A DNA stretch of 64,000 bases from an uncultured delta proteobacterium (lineage in GTDB: Bacteria; Desulfobacterota; Desulfobacteria; Desulfobacterales; JAFDCJ01), in the NCBI GenBank assembly GCA_963769935.1, contig CAVYNY010000022.1:480001-544000 (forward strand), in the 5' to 3' direction. The notes beneath the pieces were generated by a model that had not been told where the DNA came from, made no database searches, and worked only from the letters and a program-made list of their open reading frames with translations. Within the stretch, counting starts at the first letter, position 1. Every line of letters begins with the position of its first letter. A program made the position numbers and the translations under genes. Shown one piece after another: positions 13,884 through 25,362 of the stretch.

Positions 13884-14413
13884 CTTTCCCCAAAATCAGT
13901 CGCGATATCCGGCCCGCTTGAAAGCGAGGGCAATCAAATTTTGTGATAAGTCGCTGAGATTCTATTTAATGCGGTATTATACTTATCGGCTGAAATGCGC
14001 CGGGCTTTAGAGAAAACTAAAGTGTTGATCCGGTTGAAGACCGGCCGGCCGATCAAAATAAAAATAAAATTCAAGGTGACTGTTTAGATGCCTGGAAAGA
14101 CGCGGTAACAGGGTGCAAGATTAGAATCGCCCGGCGGGACGACCCAGGCAACCCAGATAAAATCATCCCGGGGCAGTGGCAAAATTTAAAAATGGTGCAT
14201 ATTATATTGATGTTTTTGCATGACCCGGACCGACCCAAACCGATTTGGTATTAAATTACAGTTGCTTAATCGACCTCAACCCAACCTTCCTGCCGTGGCC
14301 GGGATCGGGCGCAGCCGGCGGGATCGCCGGTTTGGTGCCGCAGAGCGCCTTATCGGCCGGTATCTTCGATGAATTGGTTTTACCGGCCCGAGTGGATGTT
14401 AGGATCTGAAACC

Positions 14414-17345
14414 ATGAAGCGATCCTTGTCGATCAGCATTTTTATTACCGTTCTAATTTCCGTGGCCGGCACCGGCGCAGCGACGCCCTTGCCCGACGCC
14501 CAAACCTTGCGCGGATGGGTGCAGGAGATGAAAAACGCCCCCCGGGGACCTTTTGCGCGCCTGCGTTGGTTTTGCAGTGACGGCGCGATCCTGCCTCCCA
14601 AAGAATATGCCTGCCAAGATCACGGGGGCGGCGTGCAGCACGGAGAATGGACCGACCAGGTAAAATTGATGCGGGACAACGGGTATTTCATTGCCAATGT
14701 TTATGCCGACATTGATCCGACCCGGTTGCAGGAGGATCCGCAACAGATTGAAATCATAAAGCAAATGATTCTGGAACGGTTCCTGAGCGATGCGGACGAC
14801 GGCTGGATTTTCCACCGGGCCCGATACTACCGCGGAGCGTTGCAGACCGAAGACGAGATTCGGGGAGGCCGGGGGCTTCTGCTGGCTCTGGTTCAAGATC
14901 CGGCCTGGCGTCAGAAAAGGTTTCTCGTGCTGCGGGAAGCCGTCCGCTTCATGCCCCACGGCCGCAAAAACGCACCGGTCAGTGAAATGCGCCAGCTTGC
15001 CCAATCGATTGCCGAGCAAGACCAAAATTTTGAAAATTTGCGGAACAAAATTCATGTTCACCCGGAGTTAAGCGATGCCGCGCAGGTTCGCACCTATGCC
15101 AAGAAACGCGGCGTTGCCGAACTATCCGGCGATTATGAACGTCTGGCGCAGACTATCGAAGAAATTTACCTGCCCCGGGACGTCGTTCCCGTCCTTTTCT
15201 CCCTGGCCAAGCAGATCAAAAATACCGAGTTAAAGCAGCAAATCAGGCAGGCTGCTGCGAAACTGCGGGATCAGACCGATCCGGCGGCCAGCTTCACGGT
15301 TGCCAACCGCTTACTGGCAACACTGCGGGCCGATATGCTTCAAACCGGCGGCGCCGGCCGGAAACTGGCGCTGGTGGATGCCAGCCTGGTGCTGGAGGGC
15401 GACCTGTATCGCAGCGGCAATCAATTATTGGAGACGCTTTCCGGGAGCTCCCGCCGGCAGCGGATAGTATGGCTGGGCGATTGTACCGACGGTCTTTACG
15501 GAATCGGCCTGCTTTCTTCACGTCAGCAGCGGGCCCTGCATAATAATTTTCAAAGGCTGCTCAACGCCAACCCTGCATTAAAAGACTACCAGGGCGCATT
15601 GGACTACGCTGCCCGCGTTCCGGAATGGGCCGATCGACAGCTGAGATTTCATTTTGCCGAATCCGTGGCCCATCTCGCCGAAATCGAGCCGCTCACCCGG
15701 CGCTACATTCATGACCGGCTGCGCGGCAGTCTGCTGCTGACGTATTCCGCACTTTTGGAAAGTTTGCTGGCCGATGCCGGCAGCCAGTTGGGAATCGATA
15801 ACGACCTGTTCGGTCAGAAACTGACCTCCGGTTTGCGCGGATTGAATGCCGGGCTGGCGCGCGGCACGCTCAGAAAGCCTGAAAAGAATAATCATTTGCA
15901 GATCCATGACCGCAGCGGTATCTACGTCCTGCCTGCAACCACCGAAGATTTGCCCCCGGTAGCCGGCATCATCACCGCCGGCAAGGGAAATATCCTCTCG
16001 CATGTTCAACTCCTGGCCCGCAATCTGGGCATACCCAATGTGGCGATAGATGAAGAACTGCTCCAACGCATTAACGCCAGAATCGGCACCAGGGTTGTAC
16101 TGGCTGTGAGCTCCCGCGGCGTCGTGGAACTGGTTGCAGACGGACCCGACTGGAACAAGGTATTTGCCGCAGAAACCAGGGCCCAGGACGTTGTCATTCG
16201 TCCGGATCTGACCAAACTGGATCTTTACAATGTCGGCTTTATTCCGCTGCGACAGATGCGGGCGACCGATTCAGGCCGGATCGCCGGACCCAAAGCCGCC
16301 AACCTGGGTGAACTCAAACATTATTTTCCCGAGGCCGTGACCAAGGGTCTGGTAATTCCTTTCGGACACTTCCGGGCCCTGCTGGATCAGCCCCTTGAAC
16401 CCGGCGGCCCCAGTGTGTTCGGCTGGATGCAGCAGCAATATCAAACGATCCAGAGCCTTGCCGGCCGGCCCCGCGAACAGGAAACCCTCACCCGTCAAGT
16501 TCCTGGAAAGAATGCGGGACTGGATCAGCAATGCCGATCCCGGAGAAGACTTTCGCCGGCGTCTGAAAGAGGCCATGGATGAAAATTTCGGTCCGGATGG
16601 CACTTACGGCGTATTTGTACGCAGCGACACCAATGTAGAAGATCTGCCGGGTTTTACCGGTGCCGGCCTGAACCTCACCGTCCCCAATGTGGTCGGTTTT
16701 GAAAACGTGCTGCAGGCGATCAATCGGGTCTGGGCGTCGCCATTTACCGAGCGTGCCTATCGCTGGCGTCAGGCCTACATGCAGACTCCGGAACATATTT
16801 ACGTCTCCGTGCTGCTGTTAAAAAGCGTACCGTCAGACAAATCCGGTGTCATGGTCACGGCCGACGTGAACACCGGACAACCCGGCTGGCTAACCATCGC
16901 CGTCAACGAAGGGGTCAGCGGCGCTGTTTCCGGCCAAACCGCCGAGGAGCTGCGGATTCAACCGGCCGACGGCGACGTGCAGCTGCTGTCGTCCGCCACC
17001 GAGCCATACAAGCGGGTATTATTAAAGGAAGGCGGTGTGTCCAAGATCCCGGTCGACGGCGGCGAGGCTGTTTTGAGCCCCCAAGAGATCGAGCGGTTGA
17101 TAAAATTTGCCGGTAGCCTACCGGACCGATTCCCCATGCTGCAAAACGCCCAGGGCCAGACGGCTCCCGCCGATATCGAATTTGGATTTTACAACGACCG
17201 GCTGGTGCTCTTTCAAATCCGTCCCTTTCTGGATAACCCCCGCGCCCGCCAAAATATTTTTCTGAATCAGCTGGATCAAAGGCTGGAGGAAAAACAGAGC
17301 CTGCTTATTGATCTGGACCGGATTCCGGATGAGGAAACCAATTGA
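14414..17345 (+). CDS. Exported PEP-utilising/dikinase-family enzyme (His domain followed by ATP-grasp); apparent frameshift near 16497
   Basis: Signal peptide MKRSLSISIFITVLISVAGTGA; phospho-His motif GNILSHVQLLARN (His codon 16001-16003); GPKAANLGEL, FVRSDTNVEDLPGFTGAGLN, DIEFGF, LFQIRP; ORFs 14369..16582 and 16395..17345 join if one base is removed. Confidence 0.85.
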
Positions 17346-18607
17346 AAACATTCACCAAATTCGGCTTTTGGGCATTCGTTTTAATCTGGGTTCAAAACGG
17401 CTGGTCATACCCGCTGGACGGTTATCCCGCGACGGGAATTTTGCGGCTGGAAGGTTTTCGACTGGCACAGCAGGGCAGCGTAGCGGGAATCCGGCTGCCG
17501 CCCGGCGCGCTGCTCCCAAAAGACCAGGTCGATCTGCGTTTGACTGAATATCCCGATTTTCAGATGCCGGCGGTCGATCCGGAGTTTTCGGCGCAGATTG
17601 ATACGCTTCTGGGAGAAGATGCCGACAATTACGGGATTGCGGTACTGGATTTGACCGATATCAAGGCGCCGCGCTATGCCGAACATCGCGGCAGCTATCG
17701 CGCCAATCCCGGCAGCGTCGGCAAACTCGTCGTAGCGCTGGGAATTTTTCAGGCGCTGGCGGATATCTACCCCGATGACGTCGACAAACGGCAGCGCGTC
17801 CTGCATGATACGGTGGTCACGGCCGACCAGTTCATCCAAACCGATCATCACAAGGTGCCGTGGTGGACGCCGGACAGCAAGAAAATCAGCTATCGCCCGA
17901 TCCGGGTCGGCGACCAGGCCAATCTGTGGACCTACCTTGACTGGATGCTGTCTGCCAGCTCAAATGCGGCGGCCAGTATGGTGATCAGGGAGCTGATGCT
18001 CCTGGTGCAGTTTGGCCGGGACTATCCGCTCAGCCCCGAGGCGGCCGCTCATTTTTTTGCCGCCACGCCGCGCGGACAGCTTTCACAGCTGTTGTCCCGG
18101 AGTTTGCAGGAGCCCGTAACCCGCAATGTCCTGGATCTGGGAAATCTTCGGCAGGGGTCTTTTTTTACCTGGAAGGGCAAGCAGCTCGTGCCGGGCACCA
18201 CCAGCCAGGCCAGCCCCGTGGAGCTGATGCGGTATCTGGTGAAGATGGAGCAGGGGCGTCTGGTGGATACCTTTTCCAGCCGGGAAATCAAACGTCTGAT
18301 TTACATGACGCAGGGCCGTATCCGCTACGCCTCGGCACCGGCGCTTTACCCGGCCGCCGTTTATTTCAAATCCGGCTCCTTGTACAAATGCCGGGCGGAA
18401 CCGAATTTCAAATGCGGCAAATACCAGGGCAACGTGGTGAACATGCTAAATTCGCTGGCAATTGTCGAATTCCCGGCAGCTGAGCGCAAAATCTATTATA
18501 TGGTGGCGGTGATGTCCAATGTTTTGCGGAAAAATTCGGCGGTAGCCCATCAGACCTTGGCCAGCCGCATCCAGAGATTGATGGAGGCGTATCATCGGGG
18601 GCGATAA
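17342..18607 (+). CDS. Exported serine hydrolase, class A beta-lactamase/PBP-like fold
   Basis: Signal peptide; SVGK (SxxK), SSN (SxN), KSG; TTG start overlaps upstream TGA. Confidence 0.85.
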   Translation: MKTFTKFGFWAFVLIWVQNGWSYPLDGYPATGILRLEGFRLAQQGSVAGIRLPPGALLPKDQVDLRLTEYPDFQMPAVDPEFSAQIDTLLGEDADNYGIAVLDLTDIKAPRYAEHRGSYRANPGSVGKLVVALGIFQALADIYPDDVDKRQRVLHDTVVTADQFIQTDHHKVPWWTPDSKKISYRPIRVGDQANLWTYLDWMLSASSNAAASMVIRELMLLVQFGRDYPLSPEAAAHFFAATPRGQLSQLLSRSLQEPVTRNVLDLGNLRQGSFFTWKGKQLVPGTTSQASPVELMRYLVKMEQGRLVDTFSSREIKRLIYMTQGRIRYASAPALYPAAVYFKSGSLYKCRAEPNFKCGKYQGNVVNMLNSLAIVEFPAAERKIYYMVAVMSNVLRKNSAVAHQTLASRIQRLMEAYHRGR

Positions 18608-18741
18608 AATTACTGGGCTTATTGTCGGCGACGACCTGGACCGGATAGGCTTGTGTGAAACTTCAGGCAAACGAGGCGGGTATCATGTTGCATGGATAGA
18701 AGAGTCAGAAAGGGAACAACGGCAAGTGACCAGCAAGGCAT

Positions 18742-18988
18742 AAATTTCAATTTCCAAGCACCAAATCTCAAATAAATTCCAAATCACAATAATCAATGAC
18801 CGAAACCAGCCAAGCCAAGGAAATCCGGCTGATCTATTTTTTTCGTGTCATTGAACTTTCGTGTTTGGTAACCAAAGAATCGCTTACTTATTTGAAGTAA
18901 GGACCCAAACGAATGAGATCCCGTTTGGAATTTTGAATTTTGGCGATTGTAATTTATTTGGGATTTGTTATTTGGAATTTGTGATTTT
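18742..18988. repeat. Inverted heptamer-repeat element: two ~65-bp arms around a ~115-bp spacer
   Basis: Left arm aaatttc aatttcc aagcacc aaatctc aaat aaattcc aaatcac aataatc aatgacc gaaac; reverse complement of right arm (18923-18988) has the same 4x7+aaat+4x7+aaac layout. Confidence 0.75.
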
Positions 18989-19067
18989 GATTGACGCCAG
19001 CCCTGACACCTAAAACCATCGATCTCCAATCATTTCTTGTTGGAAAAAATGGTCTAAGGTTCCACGT

Positions 19068-19970
19068 CTAGTTTACGGCGGGGTGTGAGGGGTTGGTTTG
19101 AAAAATAAGATTGTCCATGGCCACAATCAATTCCCTTAGCCATAGGCCGCCCAGGCTGCTTTGGGCCAGCGCCACGGCAATATAGCGGCGGCCGTCATGC
19201 TCGATAATAGCGCTGTCCGCATGGTAATTACCCCAGGTTCCGGATTTACGAAAGATGCGAGAGTCCGGGTGGATCGCCTTCAGCCCTTTGACAAACTTGT
19301 GGTTGATGGCCGGGTGGCCGAGAATTTTTTTCATCTGGCGGCTGCTCTCGGGAGAAACCAGCCGGCCGGTTTGGAGCATGTAATAAAAACGGGCGACCTG
19401 GAAGGCGGTGGCACCGTGAGAAAGGTTGTGAAGCGGATCGCGTTTCCAGGCCCCGGCTTTGCTGTACTCTTTGCCGACCCACAGGCCCCCGTTTCGTGCC
19501 GGGTCATAAAGCCGGTAGCGGTTCGATTGCAGCAAATCGGCCAGATAGGCTTTGCCCACCTGGTTGAGAATTTCCGTGGCAGCCTGATTGGATGAGTTGC
19601 GAATCATCAATGCCAGCTTCTCCCGGGTAGCTGCATCCAGTTCCATCTCGCCGTGGGCGATGCGCTCAAAGGCACCCAGCAGAATGGCAATTTTAGGCAG
19701 ACTGGCGGCGTACATCATCTCATCGGGGTTGACATAGGCCATGCGGGGGGATGCCGGGTCCGTGATGTCGACCAGCACGATGCTCAGAGATTTATGGCTG
19801 GCGGCCTTTTCGAGATTGAGGGAGACCAGACACGTCTGCAAACCTTTTTGCAATTTCGGGTCGCAGGTCTCAGACAATTCGGCAGGCAGACGGTGAGCGG
19901 AGAGCGTGGTGGCAAACAGGAAAAAACTGATAACGGTAAACCCTATCTTGAAGCCGTATCGCAGGATCAT
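19068..19970 (-). CDS. Exported serine hydrolase, class A beta-lactamase-like
   Basis: Signal peptide ..ATTLSA; SLPK, SSN, KSG motifs. Confidence 0.85.
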   Translation of the reverse strand: MILRYGFKIGFTVISFFLFATTLSAHRLPAELSETCDPKLQKGLQTCLVSLNLEKAASHKSLSIVLVDITDPASPRMAYVNPDEMMYAASLPKIAILLGAFERIAHGEMELDAATREKLALMIRNSSNQAATEILNQVGKAYLADLLQSNRYRLYDPARNGGLWVGKEYSKAGAWKRDPLHNLSHGATAFQVARFYYMLQTGRLVSPESSRQMKKILGHPAINHKFVKGLKAIHPDSRIFRKSGTWGNYHADSAIIEHDGRRYIAVALAQSSLGGLWLRELIVAMDNLIFQTNPSHPAVN

Positions 19971-20006
19971 GGTTATTATTATGATCGATATAGTAGGAAA
20001 GGGCAA

Positions 20007-21293
20007 GTGAAAAATTCAACAAAAATTGCACCGGCCGACTGCAACGGTAAATACATTGCGCTTCGAAAGCCGGGCGTGCGAGCGGCATTTCTGTTTGTCA
20101 ATTTTTTTCTTATTATTACGGCGTTATATCAGCTGAAACCAGCCAGCCGCTCCCTTTTTATCGATGCGCTGGGCGCCGAGCGTCTGCCCTACGTCTGGAT
20201 TATCACCGCCCTGACCATGGCCGCCTTTATTACCGTCTACCATCGCATGGTTGCACGTTACAGTCGAATTCATGTGGTCCTGGGCACCACTCTGGTCGTC
20301 AGCAGCCTGCTGGTCATATTTCGCATCTTGTTTAACTATCCCGGCAAGGTTATTCCGATTGGTTTTTATGTATTTGTTGATGTTCAGAGTGTCGTTCTGG
20401 TGGAGCAGTTCTGGAGCCTGACCGATGCGATCTATACCACCCGTGAGGGAAAATCCTGGTATGGGTTTGTAGGTACCGGCGGGCTGGTGGGCGGTGTGAC
20501 CGGCGGCGGCATTTCCGCGCTGCTGATCCGGTATACCTCCCTGCAAACCCCGGACTTGCTCCTGACGGCCGCCGCCACAGTCGGCCTGATCTCGGCCCTG
20601 ACCTGGTTGATGGGCCGCATCGGTCTGTACTGTGAGGTCGATAATACAGCCAGTATTGCATCGGACGGCCGAGGCGGCTGGCGCGCTTTGGGGCGCAACC
20701 GGTATTTGCTGTTAATTGCAGCTGTTTTACTGCTGGCCCAGCTGGTATCACCGTTGATCGACTACCAGTTTTTAAACGCGGTACAGGCTTCCTATCCGGG
20801 CCGGGAGGCCCGTACGGAATTTTTGTCTCTATTTTTCAGTATGTTGGGATTGATATCGATCGGCATTAACCTACTGATCACCCCGCTCATCCACCGGGTT
20901 TTCGGTGCCATTGTCGGGCTGCTGGTCCAGCCTCTGTTGATCAGTCTGTTTGCCTGGTGTTTCTTGTTTAAATCGACCCTCTTTTTTGGAGGGGCCGGAA
21001 AAATCAGTGACCGCGGGTTATCCTATTCCCTAAACCGGGCATCCAAGGAACTGCTCTATGTGCCGATCGATCCGGTGATCATTTACCAGGCCAAGGCCTG
21101 GATCGATATGTTCGGCTACCGGTTGTTCAAGGTTTCCGGATCCCTGCTGATCCTGCTGTTCACCCAGTGGCTGCCGGTAACCATCGGCATCGCCCAGCTG
21201 AGCTGGATTTCTGTCGCCATCTGCGGCGCCTGGATTGCCCTGATTATGGTTCTGCGCCAGCAATATCAACTGATAGCTGAAAAGGAAGGATAA
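20007..21293 (+). CDS. Npt1/Npt2 (TLC ATP/ADP translocase-like) MFS nucleotide transporter
   Basis: About 12 TM segments; LKPASRSLF, EQFWSL, YSLNRASKELLYVPI, AKAWIDMFGYR; GTG 20007 taken as start. Confidence 0.75.
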   Translation: MKNSTKIAPADCNGKYIALRKPGVRAAFLFVNFFLIITALYQLKPASRSLFIDALGAERLPYVWIITALTMAAFITVYHRMVARYSRIHVVLGTTLVVSSLLVIFRILFNYPGKVIPIGFYVFVDVQSVVLVEQFWSLTDAIYTTREGKSWYGFVGTGGLVGGVTGGGISALLIRYTSLQTPDLLLTAAATVGLISALTWLMGRIGLYCEVDNTASIASDGRGGWRALGRNRYLLLIAAVLLLAQLVSPLIDYQFLNAVQASYPGREARTEFLSLFFSMLGLISIGINLLITPLIHRVFGAIVGLLVQPLLISLFAWCFLFKSTLFFGGAGKISDRGLSYSLNRASKELLYVPIDPVIIYQAKAWIDMFGYRLFKVSGSLLILLFTQWLPVTIGIAQLSWISVAICGAWIALIMVLRQQYQLIAEKEG

Positions 21294-21330
21294 ACTGCTA
21301 TAATCCCAAAATTCCATTTTTCTCTCCGAT

Positions 21331-21472
21331 CCGTAGGCTCTACCAGCCGGAGGCCATCATTCCATTATTCCACGGGCTACTTGACGGCAAAAAACCACCC
21401 CGCTCTCCGAGCTGTAAGCTCTCCGAGCCGGAAGCTGGGGTGAAGCCAAAGCCGGGTCCTCTGGACCCGGAT
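21331..21472. repeat. Dispersed ~120-bp repeat copy A with terminal hairpin and nested short unit
   Basis: Aligns with 49060-49177; hairpin ccgggtcc-tct-ggacccgg. Confidence 0.8.
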
Positions 21473-21474
21473 CT

Positions 21475-23412
21475 TTACTTTTTTTTCGGCAATTCCGGTG
21501 GATAGGCGCGGCTGTACTGATCGTAGAGCCGGGGACTCACGGCTTTGTGATCGTAAATAAGCTTATGCCAGATCTCCGCCTCGCGACGGGCGGCGACGCG
21601 CATCATCCGATGGATATCAAAGCGCCTGGAATGAAAATATTTTGTTGGCGGCCGTGCAATTCGCCGCGGGGTGTCGGCCAAGCGTCGGAAAACGTCTGTT
21701 CCATAGCGGGCGTACCACAAGAGTGTATGCGCGGTGGACAGCGCGCCGGCCCAGGGATAGTCGTGCAGCCACCACCCGCCTGATAGCGAATCGATCGCCG
21801 GATCTAGTTTTTTTCGTTCGAAATCGCTTTTCGGCGTCAAGCGCTCCTCATAAAAGAGACCTGTCCCCAATTCATCGCCTTTCAGGCGCCAGATCTTCTG
21901 AATGCCATAGTCTTCAGGATAGTGGGCGACGCGGGCGCCGTGACACAAGCCGAAGCGTCCGATAATAAAAAGCGCGATGTGGTCGCGCCGCTCTTCAATA
22001 AAAGCAATGGTGGATTCGGCTTCGTCCCAGGTTTCGGTGGGAAACTCGGTGAAGCACATGGCTTCCACCGCGATGCCGGCGGCCGAAAGATTTTTGACGG
22101 CCGCTCGCACGTCTTTGAAGGAAACCCCTTTGTCGATCATCTTCAGCAGGCGGGGTGAGGCGGTTTCGATTCCCAGGGCCAGTGAAAGGGCGCCGCCGTC
22201 TTTGAGATCCCGGCAGCATTCCGGCGTCAGGCCGGGCTCGGGTCGCATGTCGCTGGACCACCGTAGGGATGTTCCGGCCGCCCGCAGCTGCCGGGAGAGT
22301 TCCCGGGCGGTTCGGGGGGCGAAAGCATCCTGGGAGAAGTAAACGGTGCGGCAGCCCCAGCGGGCTTCCAGCTCCAGGAGGTGGGCGACGATCCGATCGA
22401 TGGGACGCTCCCGATACGCGGCCGTTCCCAGGGGGCTCAGCCCATAATGGCAGAAGGCGCATTTGCCCCAGTAGCACCCGCGCGTCGGATCATAGGGCAG
22501 CACGAGTTCCGGTGAAAGGTATTTGTCCAGCGGCAGTCCTGCAAAATCAGGTGACGGAAGCCGGCTGAGATCCGTGTTGCGTTTACCGGTGAGCACCCGG
22601 GGCGGGGTTTGGCCGCCGGCCAGCATGCGAACCAGAGCCAGCAGCATCTCTTCGCCTTCATATAGCACGGCCGAATCAAAAGGGCCGAGCAGCGGCGGAA
22701 TTTTTTCGGCGGCGAGGCCTGCCAGCAACTGCGTGACGGCAGGCCCACCCACGGTAATATGCGCTGCCGGCAGGGCGTGCCGAAGGGTGTATGCCAGCGC
22801 GAAGCCGGGCTGAATCTGTCCGGGAAAGGCCAGGGAAATGCCGATTACATCCGGGGACTGAAATGACAGCCGATCGGTGAGTTCGCCGGCAAAGTAATCG
22901 TGAAAGGGATTTTTGTCGGGTTGGGCATCTGTCCGGATTTGTTGAGGCGTCAGCAGCGAAAAGGGGGTCCGGTAAACGCTGAAATCCATCATCAAGGGAC
23001 TGTAGGCGGCGCTGATGATCCGCAGGCCGGCCTGAACGGTCTGGATCGCCTGCTCGTATTGGCATGGATCAAAAAACCGAACACCCGAGCGATCTCTGAG
23101 CACCGCGATCGCATCTTCAACCGCTGCCGGAACTCGGGCGAGATCCGGCAGGACCTCCCACAACCGCAGGTACAGCATCTGATCGGTATGACTCAGCGAC
23201 GCTTTACGGTCCAAACGCCGCCAACGATCGGCCACACGGCCGGCCATATCACGCAAGACCGCGCGGCGCAAAAGCCGGTCATAGACTTCCACATTGGCGT
23301 CGATGGGGAGCACCTCTATCCCATGGCTTCGCAGATAGGCCGTCAGCATGGGAACGGAAAGGTACGGGCCGGTAGGATCGCATGTGGGCGGATAGATCAG
23401 GGCAACTTTCAT
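21475..23412 (-). CDS. B12-binding-domain radical SAM protein
   Basis: MKVALIYPP..PYLSVPML.AYL, ITVGGP, RGCYWGKCAFC, LGIETAS. Confidence 0.85.
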   Translation of the reverse strand: MKVALIYPPTCDPTGPYLSVPMLTAYLRSHGIEVLPIDANVEVYDRLLRRAVLRDMAGRVADRWRRLDRKASLSHTDQMLYLRLWEVLPDLARVPAAVEDAIAVLRDRSGVRFFDPCQYEQAIQTVQAGLRIISAAYSPLMMDFSVYRTPFSLLTPQQIRTDAQPDKNPFHDYFAGELTDRLSFQSPDVIGISLAFPGQIQPGFALAYTLRHALPAAHITVGGPAVTQLLAGLAAEKIPPLLGPFDSAVLYEGEEMLLALVRMLAGGQTPPRVLTGKRNTDLSRLPSPDFAGLPLDKYLSPELVLPYDPTRGCYWGKCAFCHYGLSPLGTAAYRERPIDRIVAHLLELEARWGCRTVYFSQDAFAPRTARELSRQLRAAGTSLRWSSDMRPEPGLTPECCRDLKDGGALSLALGIETASPRLLKMIDKGVSFKDVRAAVKNLSAAGIAVEAMCFTEFPTETWDEAESTIAFIEERRDHIALFIIGRFGLCHGARVAHYPEDYGIQKIWRLKGDELGTGLFYEERLTPKSDFERKKLDPAIDSLSGGWWLHDYPWAGALSTAHTLLWYARYGTDVFRRLADTPRRIARPPTKYFHSRRFDIHRMMRVAARREAEIWHKLIYDHKAVSPRLYDQYSRAYPPELPKKK

Positions 23413-23556
23413 GACAGCTCTCGCCGGCGGTTGAATCGCATGTTTACAGGCGGCCACCCTCTTTCATGATTGAGTTCCTTATCCACTGGACAGTTAAAAA
23501 AATTGATTCTCTCGCCCACTTCGTTCGAGCCCCAGAGCCAACGGAGATCATGATGC

Positions 23557-25362
23557 TCAGGATATGCGGTGAGCTCTGTGAGAGACATCAGAAGAATTTA
23601 TTCCTGGTCGAGTGACTTTATTTTTCCTTAGTAAAATGTTTTTTTGCTTCTGCTTATTTACGGCGCTTTTTTCCACAAAAATCCTGCGGCCCGAGAACGG
23701 ATCGGTTTCCGTGTAATACATCAGCGTGGCATAAGTGGATGGTGAAGGCGTAAAGATCTGAACCTGTTCGGGAAGCAGCCGCAGCGTTCGGACGGCAAAT
23801 GTTCGCAGTTTTTGCATATCTTCAAGGGTGCAGCCGGGATGGGCAGCCATTAAATAATACGTCAAAAAGGGCTTGGGCGGGTTCTTGGGACAAAGCGCGT
23901 TAAACAACCCCAGGAATGCTTCCAGGCGCTCACGGCCGGGTTTGCCCATCAGCTTCAGGATCGGATCCTGTACGTGTTCGGGTGCGATCTTGAGTTGACC
24001 GGAGACATGGTACCGCAATATTTCCGTAAGATAATGAGCGCCCTCATCGGGGTCGCTGAGAATCAGGTCGTACCGGATGCCGGACCCGATGAAAACCTTG
24101 CGGACCCCGGGCAGGCTGCGCAGCGCCTTCAACAACCGGATCTGGGGACCGTGAGTTATGGGCAGGTGCCTGCAAGGCTTGGGATAGATACAACCCTTGT
24201 CCCGGCATGCGCCCCGGACCTGCTTGCGGTCACATTCGAAACCGTACATGTTGGCGGTGGCGCCGCCCACATCGGCGATGATTCCCTTGAAATCGGGATG
24301 CGACGTGAAAGCTGCCGCTTCGCGCAGCAGGGAGGCCTCGCTGCGGGACACGACCTGCCGGCCCTGATGGACCGTGATGGCACAGAAACGGCATTCGCCA
24401 TAACAGCCGCGGTGGGTTGTGAGGGAAAACCGGATGGTTTCCAGCGCGGTGACGCGGCCCTGTTTCTTGTAAATGGGATGCACATCCCGGGCATACGGCA
24501 GCTCGTAAATCCGATCGAGGTCCTCGCCGGAAAGTGGCAATCGGGGAGGGTTGTGGACCAGATAACGGGTGTCCTGGCGTTGGCAAAGCCGTCTGGCCCT
24601 GAGCGGATCCGCGTTCTCATAAAAAGTCTTGAACATCCGGCTGAACTGTTCGTTATTCTGCGACACGGTTTCATGGTCCGGAAGTTCGATATCCGGACCC
24701 TCAAACTCAGCCGCTGCTTGCGGCAACTGCCGGCTGATGTAACAGATTCCCCGGATCGATGCGATATCCTCCCGGTGCTTGAATCTTTCGGCCAGCTCCA
24801 GGATGCTCTGCTCGGCCATGCCGTAAGTCAAAACATCCGCCTTGGCGTCAAAAAGGATGGATCGTCTGATCGAATCAGACCAGGCATCATAATGGGAGAT
24901 GCGCCTGAGGCTGGCTTCAATGCCGCCCAAAACGATGGGCCGAGGCTTTTTGAAAACGCGCCGGATGAGATTGCTGTAGACGATTACCGCTCGGTCCGGA
25001 CGTTTTGTATTCAGCCCGCCCGGGGTCAGGTCGTCGCTTTTACGCCGTTTCCCGGATGCCGTGTAGTTAGCGATCATGGAGTCGACACAGCCGGCGGTGA
25101 TGCCCCAGAAAAGCGCGGGCTCCCCCAGCCTGGCAATATCCCGCTCGCTGTGAATGTCAGGTTGGGCGATAATGCCGACCCGGTAGCCTGAATTCAACAG
25201 GACCCTGCCGATGACGGCCACACCGATGTGAGGGGAGTCGATATAGGTATCTCCCGTGACCAGGATCACATCCAGCTGCTGCCATCCAAGGGAATGCACC
25301 TCCCGGGCGGTGGCGGGGATAAAGGTCGGGGGTTGAATGATGTGCTTCAGAATATGACCCAT
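23557..25362 (-). CDS. ygiQ: YgiQ/UPF0313 family radical SAM protein
   Basis: DVILVTGDTYIDSP, GGIEASLRR, RGCYGECRFC, SGQLKIAPEH, EQVQIFTP. Confidence 0.9.
   Translation of the reverse strand: MGHILKHIIQPPTFIPATAREVHSLGWQQLDVILVTGDTYIDSPHIGVAVIGRVLLNSGYRVGIIAQPDIHSERDIARLGEPALFWGITAGCVDSMIANYTASGKRRKSDDLTPGGLNTKRPDRAVIVYSNLIRRVFKKPRPIVLGGIEASLRRISHYDAWSDSIRRSILFDAKADVLTYGMAEQSILELAERFKHREDIASIRGICYISRQLPQAAAEFEGPDIELPDHETVSQNNEQFSRMFKTFYENADPLRARRLCQRQDTRYLVHNPPRLPLSGEDLDRIYELPYARDVHPIYKKQGRVTALETIRFSLTTHRGCYGECRFCAITVHQGRQVVSRSEASLLREAAAFTSHPDFKGIIADVGGATANMYGFECDRKQVRGACRDKGCIYPKPCRHLPITHGPQIRLLKALRSLPGVRKVFIGSGIRYDLILSDPDEGAHYLTEILRYHVSGQLKIAPEHVQDPILKLMGKPGRERLEAFLGLFNALCPKNPPKPFLTYYLMAAHPGCTLEDMQKLRTFAVRTLRLLPEQVQIFTPSPSTYATLMYYTETDPFSGRRIFVEKSAVNKQKQKNILLRKNKVTRPGINSSDVSHRAHRIS

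Follow-up and report, generated by a model that had tools for sequence, protein, structure and literature searches.

We analyzed a 64,000-nucleotide stretch of DNA from an uncultured delta proteobacterium (contig CAVYNY010000022.1 of assembly GCA_963769935.1, positions 480,001 to 544,000; hereafter, the window). The window carries a module of four adjacent genes, which encode a predicted exported dikinase, two predicted exported SxxK proteins (HYD1 and HYD2) and a nucleotide carrier of the TLC/NTT family (Table 1). An earlier note, made from the sequence alone, had described these genes and had read them as a candidate system in which the translocase feeds a periplasmic dikinase. All four genes were found at the place given there, and the dikinase has 976 aa, against about 975 aa in the note. 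In the assembly, the dikinase gene is split into two open reading frames. The note had placed a frameshift near 16497 that it did not take as real; the extra base responsible is 2 nt away, at 16499. When public sequencing runs were aligned to this region, the base was missing from all 8 runs, which come from four studies and of which the best-matching one may be the source sample. Moreover, the homologues are unbroken proteins of about 976 aa; the nearest one (P0006) is 92% identical over residues 1-695. Because the base is absent from all the runs and the homologues are unbroken, the break is an assembly error. Thus, the dikinase gene is whole in the organism. The TGA stop codon of the dikinase gene (17343-45) overlaps the TTG start codon of HYD1 (17342), which bears out the stop/start coupling that had been claimed. 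The second hydrolase and the carrier were also adjacent as described; however, the HYD2 gene lies on the minus strand (19970 to 19068); it converges with HYD1 and diverges from the NTT gene, whose start is 36 nt from that of HYD2. Therefore, the locus consists of two gene pairs, dikinase with HYD1 and HYD2 with NTT, and is not one co-directional operon. RNA-library contigs (which cannot show transcript level or strand) of about 97%-identical relatives, all from one study, cover the kinase, HYD1 and HYD2 genes, with little cover of 12.5-14.0 kb.

Table 1. Features of the module, its surroundings in the window and related carrier loci (window coordinates unless a locus is named)
Feature	Position	Strand	Remarks
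Dikinase	14414..17345	+	Predicted exported, GWD-order dikinase, 976 aa; PF01326, His530 motif
Predicted Sec-type signal peptide, about 23 aa	14414..14482	+	From sequence; hydrophobic core in 226/229 homologues
Putative N-terminal acceptor region: Cys54/Cys67 subdomain, then helical domain (about 110-462)	14483..15799	+	Profile alignments
Phospho-histidine swivel domain, His530 (SHVQLLARN)	15800..16153	+	PF00391 E 3e-4, below its cut-off
ATP-grasp (PPDK_N) domain	16226..17240	+	PF01326; K627, R736, S737, E742, D743, E922, Q934, R936
HYD1	17342..18607	+	Predicted exported class-A-like SxxK protein, 421 aa; PF13354
HYD2	19068..19970	-	Predicted exported class-A-like SxxK protein, 300 aa (SLPK/SSN/KSG); PF13354
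TLC/NTT-family nucleotide carrier	20007..21293	+	Single-domain, 428 aa; PF03219 E 2e-18
Dikinase open reading frames as assembled	14369-16582 and 16395-17345	+	Split by the extra base
Extra base in assembly (error)	16499..16499	+	Left out in 8/8 runs
MITE-like repeat, not part of the module	18742..18987	.	55-nt terminal inverted repeats, between HYD1 and HYD2
Second dispersed intergenic repeat	21300-21480		Downstream of NTT
B12-binding radical SAM protein	21475-23457	-	Downstream; not conserved with the module
YgiQ-family radical SAM protein	23557-25362	-	Downstream; not conserved with the module
NTT + aldo/keto reductase loci	G000:C11 (L141:6828-9254); L135, L136, L137, L139, L140

The proposed co-occurrence of the four families, and the linkage of the NTT gene in particular, could be followed in other genomes. 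We used the best-scoring 80 loci of a GTDB scan, out of about 1700 matching stretches estimated in GTDB, and the best-scoring 80 loci of a metagenome scan for a distant marine clade (45-53% to P0257), which is putatively Bacteroidota-like, as judged from its neighbours. The loci of both scans include kin, which are not independent of each other. The record titles of the GTDB loci name Desulfobacterota, Pseudomonadota, Myxococcota, Nitrospirota and Spirochaetota. Of the 80 GTDB loci, 72 showed HYD1, 57 HYD2 and 57 NTT; of the 80 distant-clade loci, 77 showed HYD1, 48 HYD2 and 56 NTT. Where wide flanks were available (at least 5 kb upstream and at least 7 kb downstream of the kinase), the numbers were 36, 33 and 34 of 38 GTDB loci (all four genes in 32), and 36, 33 and 33 of 36 distant-clade loci (all four genes in 33). 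Thus, all four genes stand together in 65 of 74 wide-flank loci, in Desulfobacterota, Pseudomonadota and Myxococcota records and in the distant marine clade; NTT is linked in 67 of the 74. HYD1 lies directly downstream of the kinase in 66/75 GTDB and 75/76 distant-clade loci. Among 61 related genomes, the 19 with a full-length kinase are exactly the 19 with HYD1; HYD2 occurs in these 19 and in two more, which have a stand-alone paralogue (21 in total). In 101 genomes of a second order, the kinase was found in 4, HYD1 in the same 4 and HYD2 in 3. Four wide loci lack both HYD2 and NTT. Three of these genomes hold HYD2 elsewhere, with NTT adjoining it in all three, so that HYD2 travels with NTT where the module is split (3/3 checked); the fourth locus has a truncated HYD1, and its genome has no HYD2 match. 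No fifth gene was conserved around the module in the scanned loci. The module is real, intact and widespread, and it is conserved across several bacterial phyla. Agaribacterium haliotis (L125) is a cultured carrier. One full module lies on a contig titled Nitrosopumilus sp., an archaeon (L099); this is probably a mis-binned bacterial contig.

The phospho-histidine domain of the dikinase precedes the C-terminal ATP-grasp domain, as the earlier note had stated: His530 lies in SHVQLLARN, and PPDK_N (PF01326, E 1e-25) follows. His530 is kept in 131 of 132 kinases and the ATP-grasp residues in 131-132 of 132; the catalytic residues of both domains thus appear intact and near-invariant in the alignments. 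The signal peptide that the note had seen on the dikinase was also predicted here. Signal peptides were called by a hydrophobicity heuristic, not by SignalP. The dikinase begins with a signal-like MKRSLS..., and 226 of 229 full-length homologues have a hydrophobic, signal-like N-terminus, as compared with 18 of 109 bacterial glucan, water dikinases (GWDs) used as controls. Because this heuristic is the only source of the calls, the N-termini might instead be membrane anchors or mis-called starts, in which case the enzymes would be cytoplasmic and their link to the carrier incidental. We regard this as very improbable. The N-termini of all three enzyme families are short, poorly conserved and basic then hydrophobic, with Ala-rich end sites. 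Furthermore, Cys pairs are conserved (Cys54/Cys67 in 130/132 kinases, and another pair in HYD1), and the linkage to NTT extends across phyla.

The earlier note had called the region before the His domain an unrecognised helical region and had proposed a fold comparison with GWD. Three fold searches with the kinase gave nothing clear for this region; in contrast, profile alignment did match GWD, and the region aligns with the GWD central domain weakly, yet beyond shuffled controls. When the C-terminal 625 residues of the kinase were used to look for longer relatives, three divergent intermediates (P0284-86) and true GWDs, several of which are bacterial, were found. The alignment of the family profile to GWD was co-linear for 656 columns, beginning at residue 114 and reaching into the ATP-grasp domain (P 99.7), and the His domains of kinase and GWD were aligned by HHalign with P 96.6. 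With the intermediates added, the helical domain matched the GWD central domain with P 77.7, E 1.9e-5 and a score of 46 (HHalign); none of 90 block-shuffled controls reached this score, their maximum being 30.4. Seven of 13 family-conserved positions match identical GWD-conserved residues (R193, F206, H214, D221, L244, W405 and R437), a number reached in none of 60 shuffles, two of which reached 6. In StGWD1, as described in part of PMC13553574, the central, His and ATP domains span 483-926, 931-1050 and 1069-1387, and the central domain forms a groove into which the phospho-His is modelled to point; the domain lengths of the kinase match these. We take the helical domain to be a probable, distant homologue of this central domain. 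As a whole, the enzyme resembles an exported core of GWD that lacks the starch-binding modules.

The kinase shares with GWD1 (EC 2.7.9.4; StGWD1, 9HA9/9QVI) the order of a probable central domain, His swivel and ATP-grasp, the domain sizes and a similar RSD-N-EDL-GAGL motif, and the bacterial CBM45-bearing GWDs (P0287-P0411) have the same domain order. The differences are as follows. Ig/CBM45-type domains are missing from the kinase (PF23166 is present in P0287-P0292 and absent from P0006). Only about 90 residues precede its helical domain, with the signal peptide and the Cys subdomain in place of such modules. It scores 13.4 bits against PF22973 (GWD1_pHisD), for which the cut-off is 27. RSD (736) comes before VWAS (772), whereas this order is reversed in the four GWDs compared, among which there was no PWD sequence. 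Finally, its partners are SxxK proteins and NTT. Because it has neither CBM45-type modules nor the rearranged motif order of GWD1, we do not file the kinase as a GWD. In most discussions, GWD figures as a starch enzyme of eukaryotes. Many of the bacterial proteins found here (P0287-P0289, P0293-P0411) are full GWDs with Ig/CBM45-type domains, which by their names come from Desulfobacterales, Nitrospirota and Deltaproteobacteria. The distribution of GWD in eukaryotes is among the subjects treated in 10.64898/2026.09.25.754361. The longer or more distant members P0284, P0285, P0286 and L045:8229-11405 have large extra N-terminal regions and signal-like starts.

Rifampin phosphotransferase (RPH; 5hv1) and PEP synthase differ from the kinase in domain order (the ATP-grasp domain of the kinase is C-terminal), in acceptor domain and in predicted location. 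Low scores were obtained with PEP synthase PRK06464 (73 bits; cut-off, 598) and RPH NF041857 (67 bits; cut-off, 999). The closest solved ATP-grasp domain is nevertheless that of RPH, a small-molecule kinase. Weak NCBIfam matches to PigC and RedH (E 6e-16 and 1e-14) raise another explanation, namely that the dikinase activates a carboxylate or carbonyl group as an acyl-phosphate, like condensing enzymes of the PigC/RedH type, and that the serines of the SxxK proteins, whose intact triads are able to form acyl-enzymes, take and transfer the acyl group in a periplasmic ligase or acylation pathway. These matches cover the shared ATP-grasp domain only (58 bits as compared with a cut-off of 1300), and the domain order and central domain of the kinase are GWD-like. 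We therefore consider an acyl-phosphate route improbable.

HYD1 and HYD2 are related to each other (P 98.7), both score above the cut-off of PF13354, and no other PF13354 protein was found in genome G000. SxxK, SxN and KSG (SVGK/SSN/KSG in HYD1) are at least 95% conserved in 141 HYD1 and 104 HYD2 sequences. These motifs are shared with PBP-A (Tll2115, 2j7v; SxxK, SxN, K-S/T-G), which is the closest solved relative of the HYD2 profile (E 4.9e-5); HYD1 had no PDB match at E 0.01. Unlike PBP-A, HYD1 and HYD2 form separate families that are tied to the kinase and the carrier. They are also distinct from class A beta-lactamase (NF033103), against which HYD2 scored 15.8 bits (cut-off, 200) and HYD1 gave no match. 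Stand-alone HYD2 paralogues (L129-L134) have neither kinase nor NTT beside them, and two of these lie among gene clusters of exported or outer-membrane type. The predicted mature HYD1 starts with an invariant Tyr-Pro (Y23-P24), and in both proteins KSG is immediately preceded by conserved basic residues that might bind an anionic ligand. These features, together with the coupling and exact co-occurrence of kinase and HYD1 and the RPH-like ATP-grasp domain, suit an alternative in which the dikinase is periplasmic and fed by NTT, and in which its acceptor is HYD1 or HYD2 themselves or a small periplasmic molecule, so that the SxxK proteins would be targets or phosphate removers. However, the acceptor domain resembles the GWD central domain and not the rifampin-binding domain of RPH, and we know of no characterised dikinase that phosphorylates a protein partner. 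This alternative seems unlikely to us. Among the three acceptors that the earlier note had offered (a cell-envelope glycan, a small molecule or the partner proteins), the probable homology with the GWD central domain favours the glycan.

The carrier in the window belongs to the NTT family by PF03219 (66.9 bits; cut-off, 21). In a quick tree, the linked carriers fall into five supported clades. Two of these are single-domain; the other three have long C-terminal fusions of the HEAT type, some of which also carry cNMP or STAS domains. Two NTTs are present in 10 of the 80 GTDB loci. Because five clades are used and some loci have two carriers, the need seems to be for the carrier family and not for one inherited gene. 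The same NTT-HEAT(-cNBD) fusions are among the NTT/TLC carriers described in PMC5381601, whose available text calls their functions in free-living bacteria unknown. Characterised carriers import nucleotides into parasites or plastids, whereas the context of the module points to export. A parallel case was found in a separate NTT clade, whose genes lie directly before an aldo/keto reductase gene (PF00248) in 6 of 7 loci of one genus, that of the bacterium studied here, the seventh locus being a contig end (Table 1). The reductases have a twin-arginine-type start, with PF10518 matching 2 of 6 below its cut-off. Because these loci belong to one lineage, we count them as one event. By analogy, they support the export idea for NTT, and this clade may supply NAD(P)H to a periplasmic aldo/keto reductase. 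The G000 copy is split into two open reading frames, possibly by another assembly indel.

Transport in the opposite direction has to be weighed as well. The kinase could use outside or leaked ATP, NTT could import the phosphorylated product, AMP or other nucleotides, and the SxxK proteins could free the substrate. According to parts of PMC5381601 and PMC6995639, most characterised NTTs are importers, and their substrates vary; ATP can be measured in the periplasm of E. coli, as partial text of PMC7432876 reports; and it is the carrier, not the kinase, that HYD2 accompanies. A signal-like acid phosphatase (PF03767, class B/C-type) stands near 7 of the 160 loci of the two scans (L073, L083, L093, L103, L105, L110, L118); its role could be to recycle AMP or to take the added phosphate off again. 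However, phosphatases hydrolyse periplasmic ATP quickly (same portion of PMC7432876), sediment bacteria have no obvious ATP-rich source, and five NTT clades, some with cNMP-binding regulatory domains, are kept beside an ATP consumer. Such scavenging is thus rather unlikely.

We propose that NTT supplies ATP to the dikinase, which we consider likely whatever the acceptor is. In this proposal, NTT would export ATP from the cytoplasm to the periplasm, where the dikinase would autophosphorylate His530 with the beta-phosphate of ATP and release AMP and Pi. The swivelling His domain would then pass the phosphate to a hydroxyl group of a carbohydrate bound in the central domain. From the chemistry of the family, the net reaction would be ATP + H2O + acceptor -> AMP + Pi + phospho-acceptor. 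The remote homology suggests that the helical domain is an acceptor-binding central domain of the GWD type, so that the acceptor would be a carbohydrate. HYD1, because it is translationally coupled to the kinase and never found without it, may stand in for the missing carbohydrate-binding modules of GWD and would bind or trim the substrate and present it; HYD2, because it travels with the carrier, may act on the product or at the carrier. AMP might be returned by the carrier or recycled by a second NTT or the acid phosphatase. Peptidoglycan is the best candidate acceptor because both partners share the PBP fold, only 2 of 19 module carriers were found to have OpgG-type glucan synthesis, and starch-binding modules are absent. 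The whole chain would run from ATP export by NTT to the phosphorylation of an envelope glycan, most likely peptidoglycan or one of its fragments, by the exported dikinase. We offer it as a tentative reading, to which we give slightly less than an even chance.

The earlier interpretation survived the tests of linkage, signal-like N-termini and frameshift. Several points weigh against the proposed chain. Localisation, ATP export and acceptor are predicted from sequence, and only the PBP fold seen in HYD1 and HYD2 suggests peptidoglycan. The match to the GWD central domain is of moderate strength: the helical domain alone gave E 0.12 against a 5-row GWD alignment and E 0.004 against 124 GWDs before the distant members were added. 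The solved GWD central domains 9HA9 and 9QVI were not among the matches listed in the three fold searches; both are in the sequence file, but whether the fold library contains them is not known. Concerning linkage, no NTT was found next to the kinase in 7 of 74 wide loci, and the contig of a distant second kinase (L045) carries neither an SxxK nor an NTT partner. HYD2 paralogues exist without the module, and the conserved surroundings of the scanned loci include no gene for glycan synthesis or peptidoglycan. The RNA cover of the NTT gene is patchy and partial. The carrier scored 43.7 bits (E 2e-11) against TIGR00769, the profile of characterised ATP/ADP exchangers, for which the cut-off is 387.2. 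From what is available of PMC6995639, NTT specificity is not predictable from sequence, and characterised exchangers swap ATP for ADP and Pi, whereas a dikinase makes AMP; there and in the same portion of PMC5381601, some NTTs carry NAD or import only. Finally, the periplasmic ATP measured in E. coli (PMC7432876, in part) is found without such a carrier.

Two dispersed repeats accompany the module. The miniature inverted-repeat transposable element (MITE)-like element has 108 matches of at least 40 nt in G000 and is partly skipped by contigs of related strains; the intergenic repeat downstream of NTT has 62 matches of at least 40 nt.

No description of this module was found in our literature searches. 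Each part comes from a known superfamily; in the literature found, there was no known system in which a nucleotide carrier is coupled to an exported dikinase. Lig E, in the excerpted text of PMC10799422, is an earlier case of an ATP-dependent enzyme that carries an export signal; it differs in its chemistry, and no linked ATP carrier is named in that text. A broader, bolder proposal, which we think possible and on balance doubtful, is that free-living Gram-negatives use NTTs as cofactor exporters for periplasmic enzymes: ATP would serve an exported, early-branching GWD relative that phosphorylates the sugar backbone of peptidoglycan, a new cell-wall modification, and elsewhere NAD(P)H would serve a Tat-exported aldo/keto reductase. 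The passage of ATP across the inner membrane into the periplasm is called an open question in part of PMC7432876, and the function of NTTs in free-living bacteria is called unknown in part of PMC5381601. The module offers a directly testable answer to both, with a named carrier, a named predicted extracytoplasmic ATP consumer and a cultured host, A. haliotis. If our proposal is true, a GWD-type enzyme would act on something other than starch or glycogen, which would bear on the origin of glucan dikinases, and the module could point to a so far undescribed modification of the envelope in bacteria that abound in the sea and in sediments.

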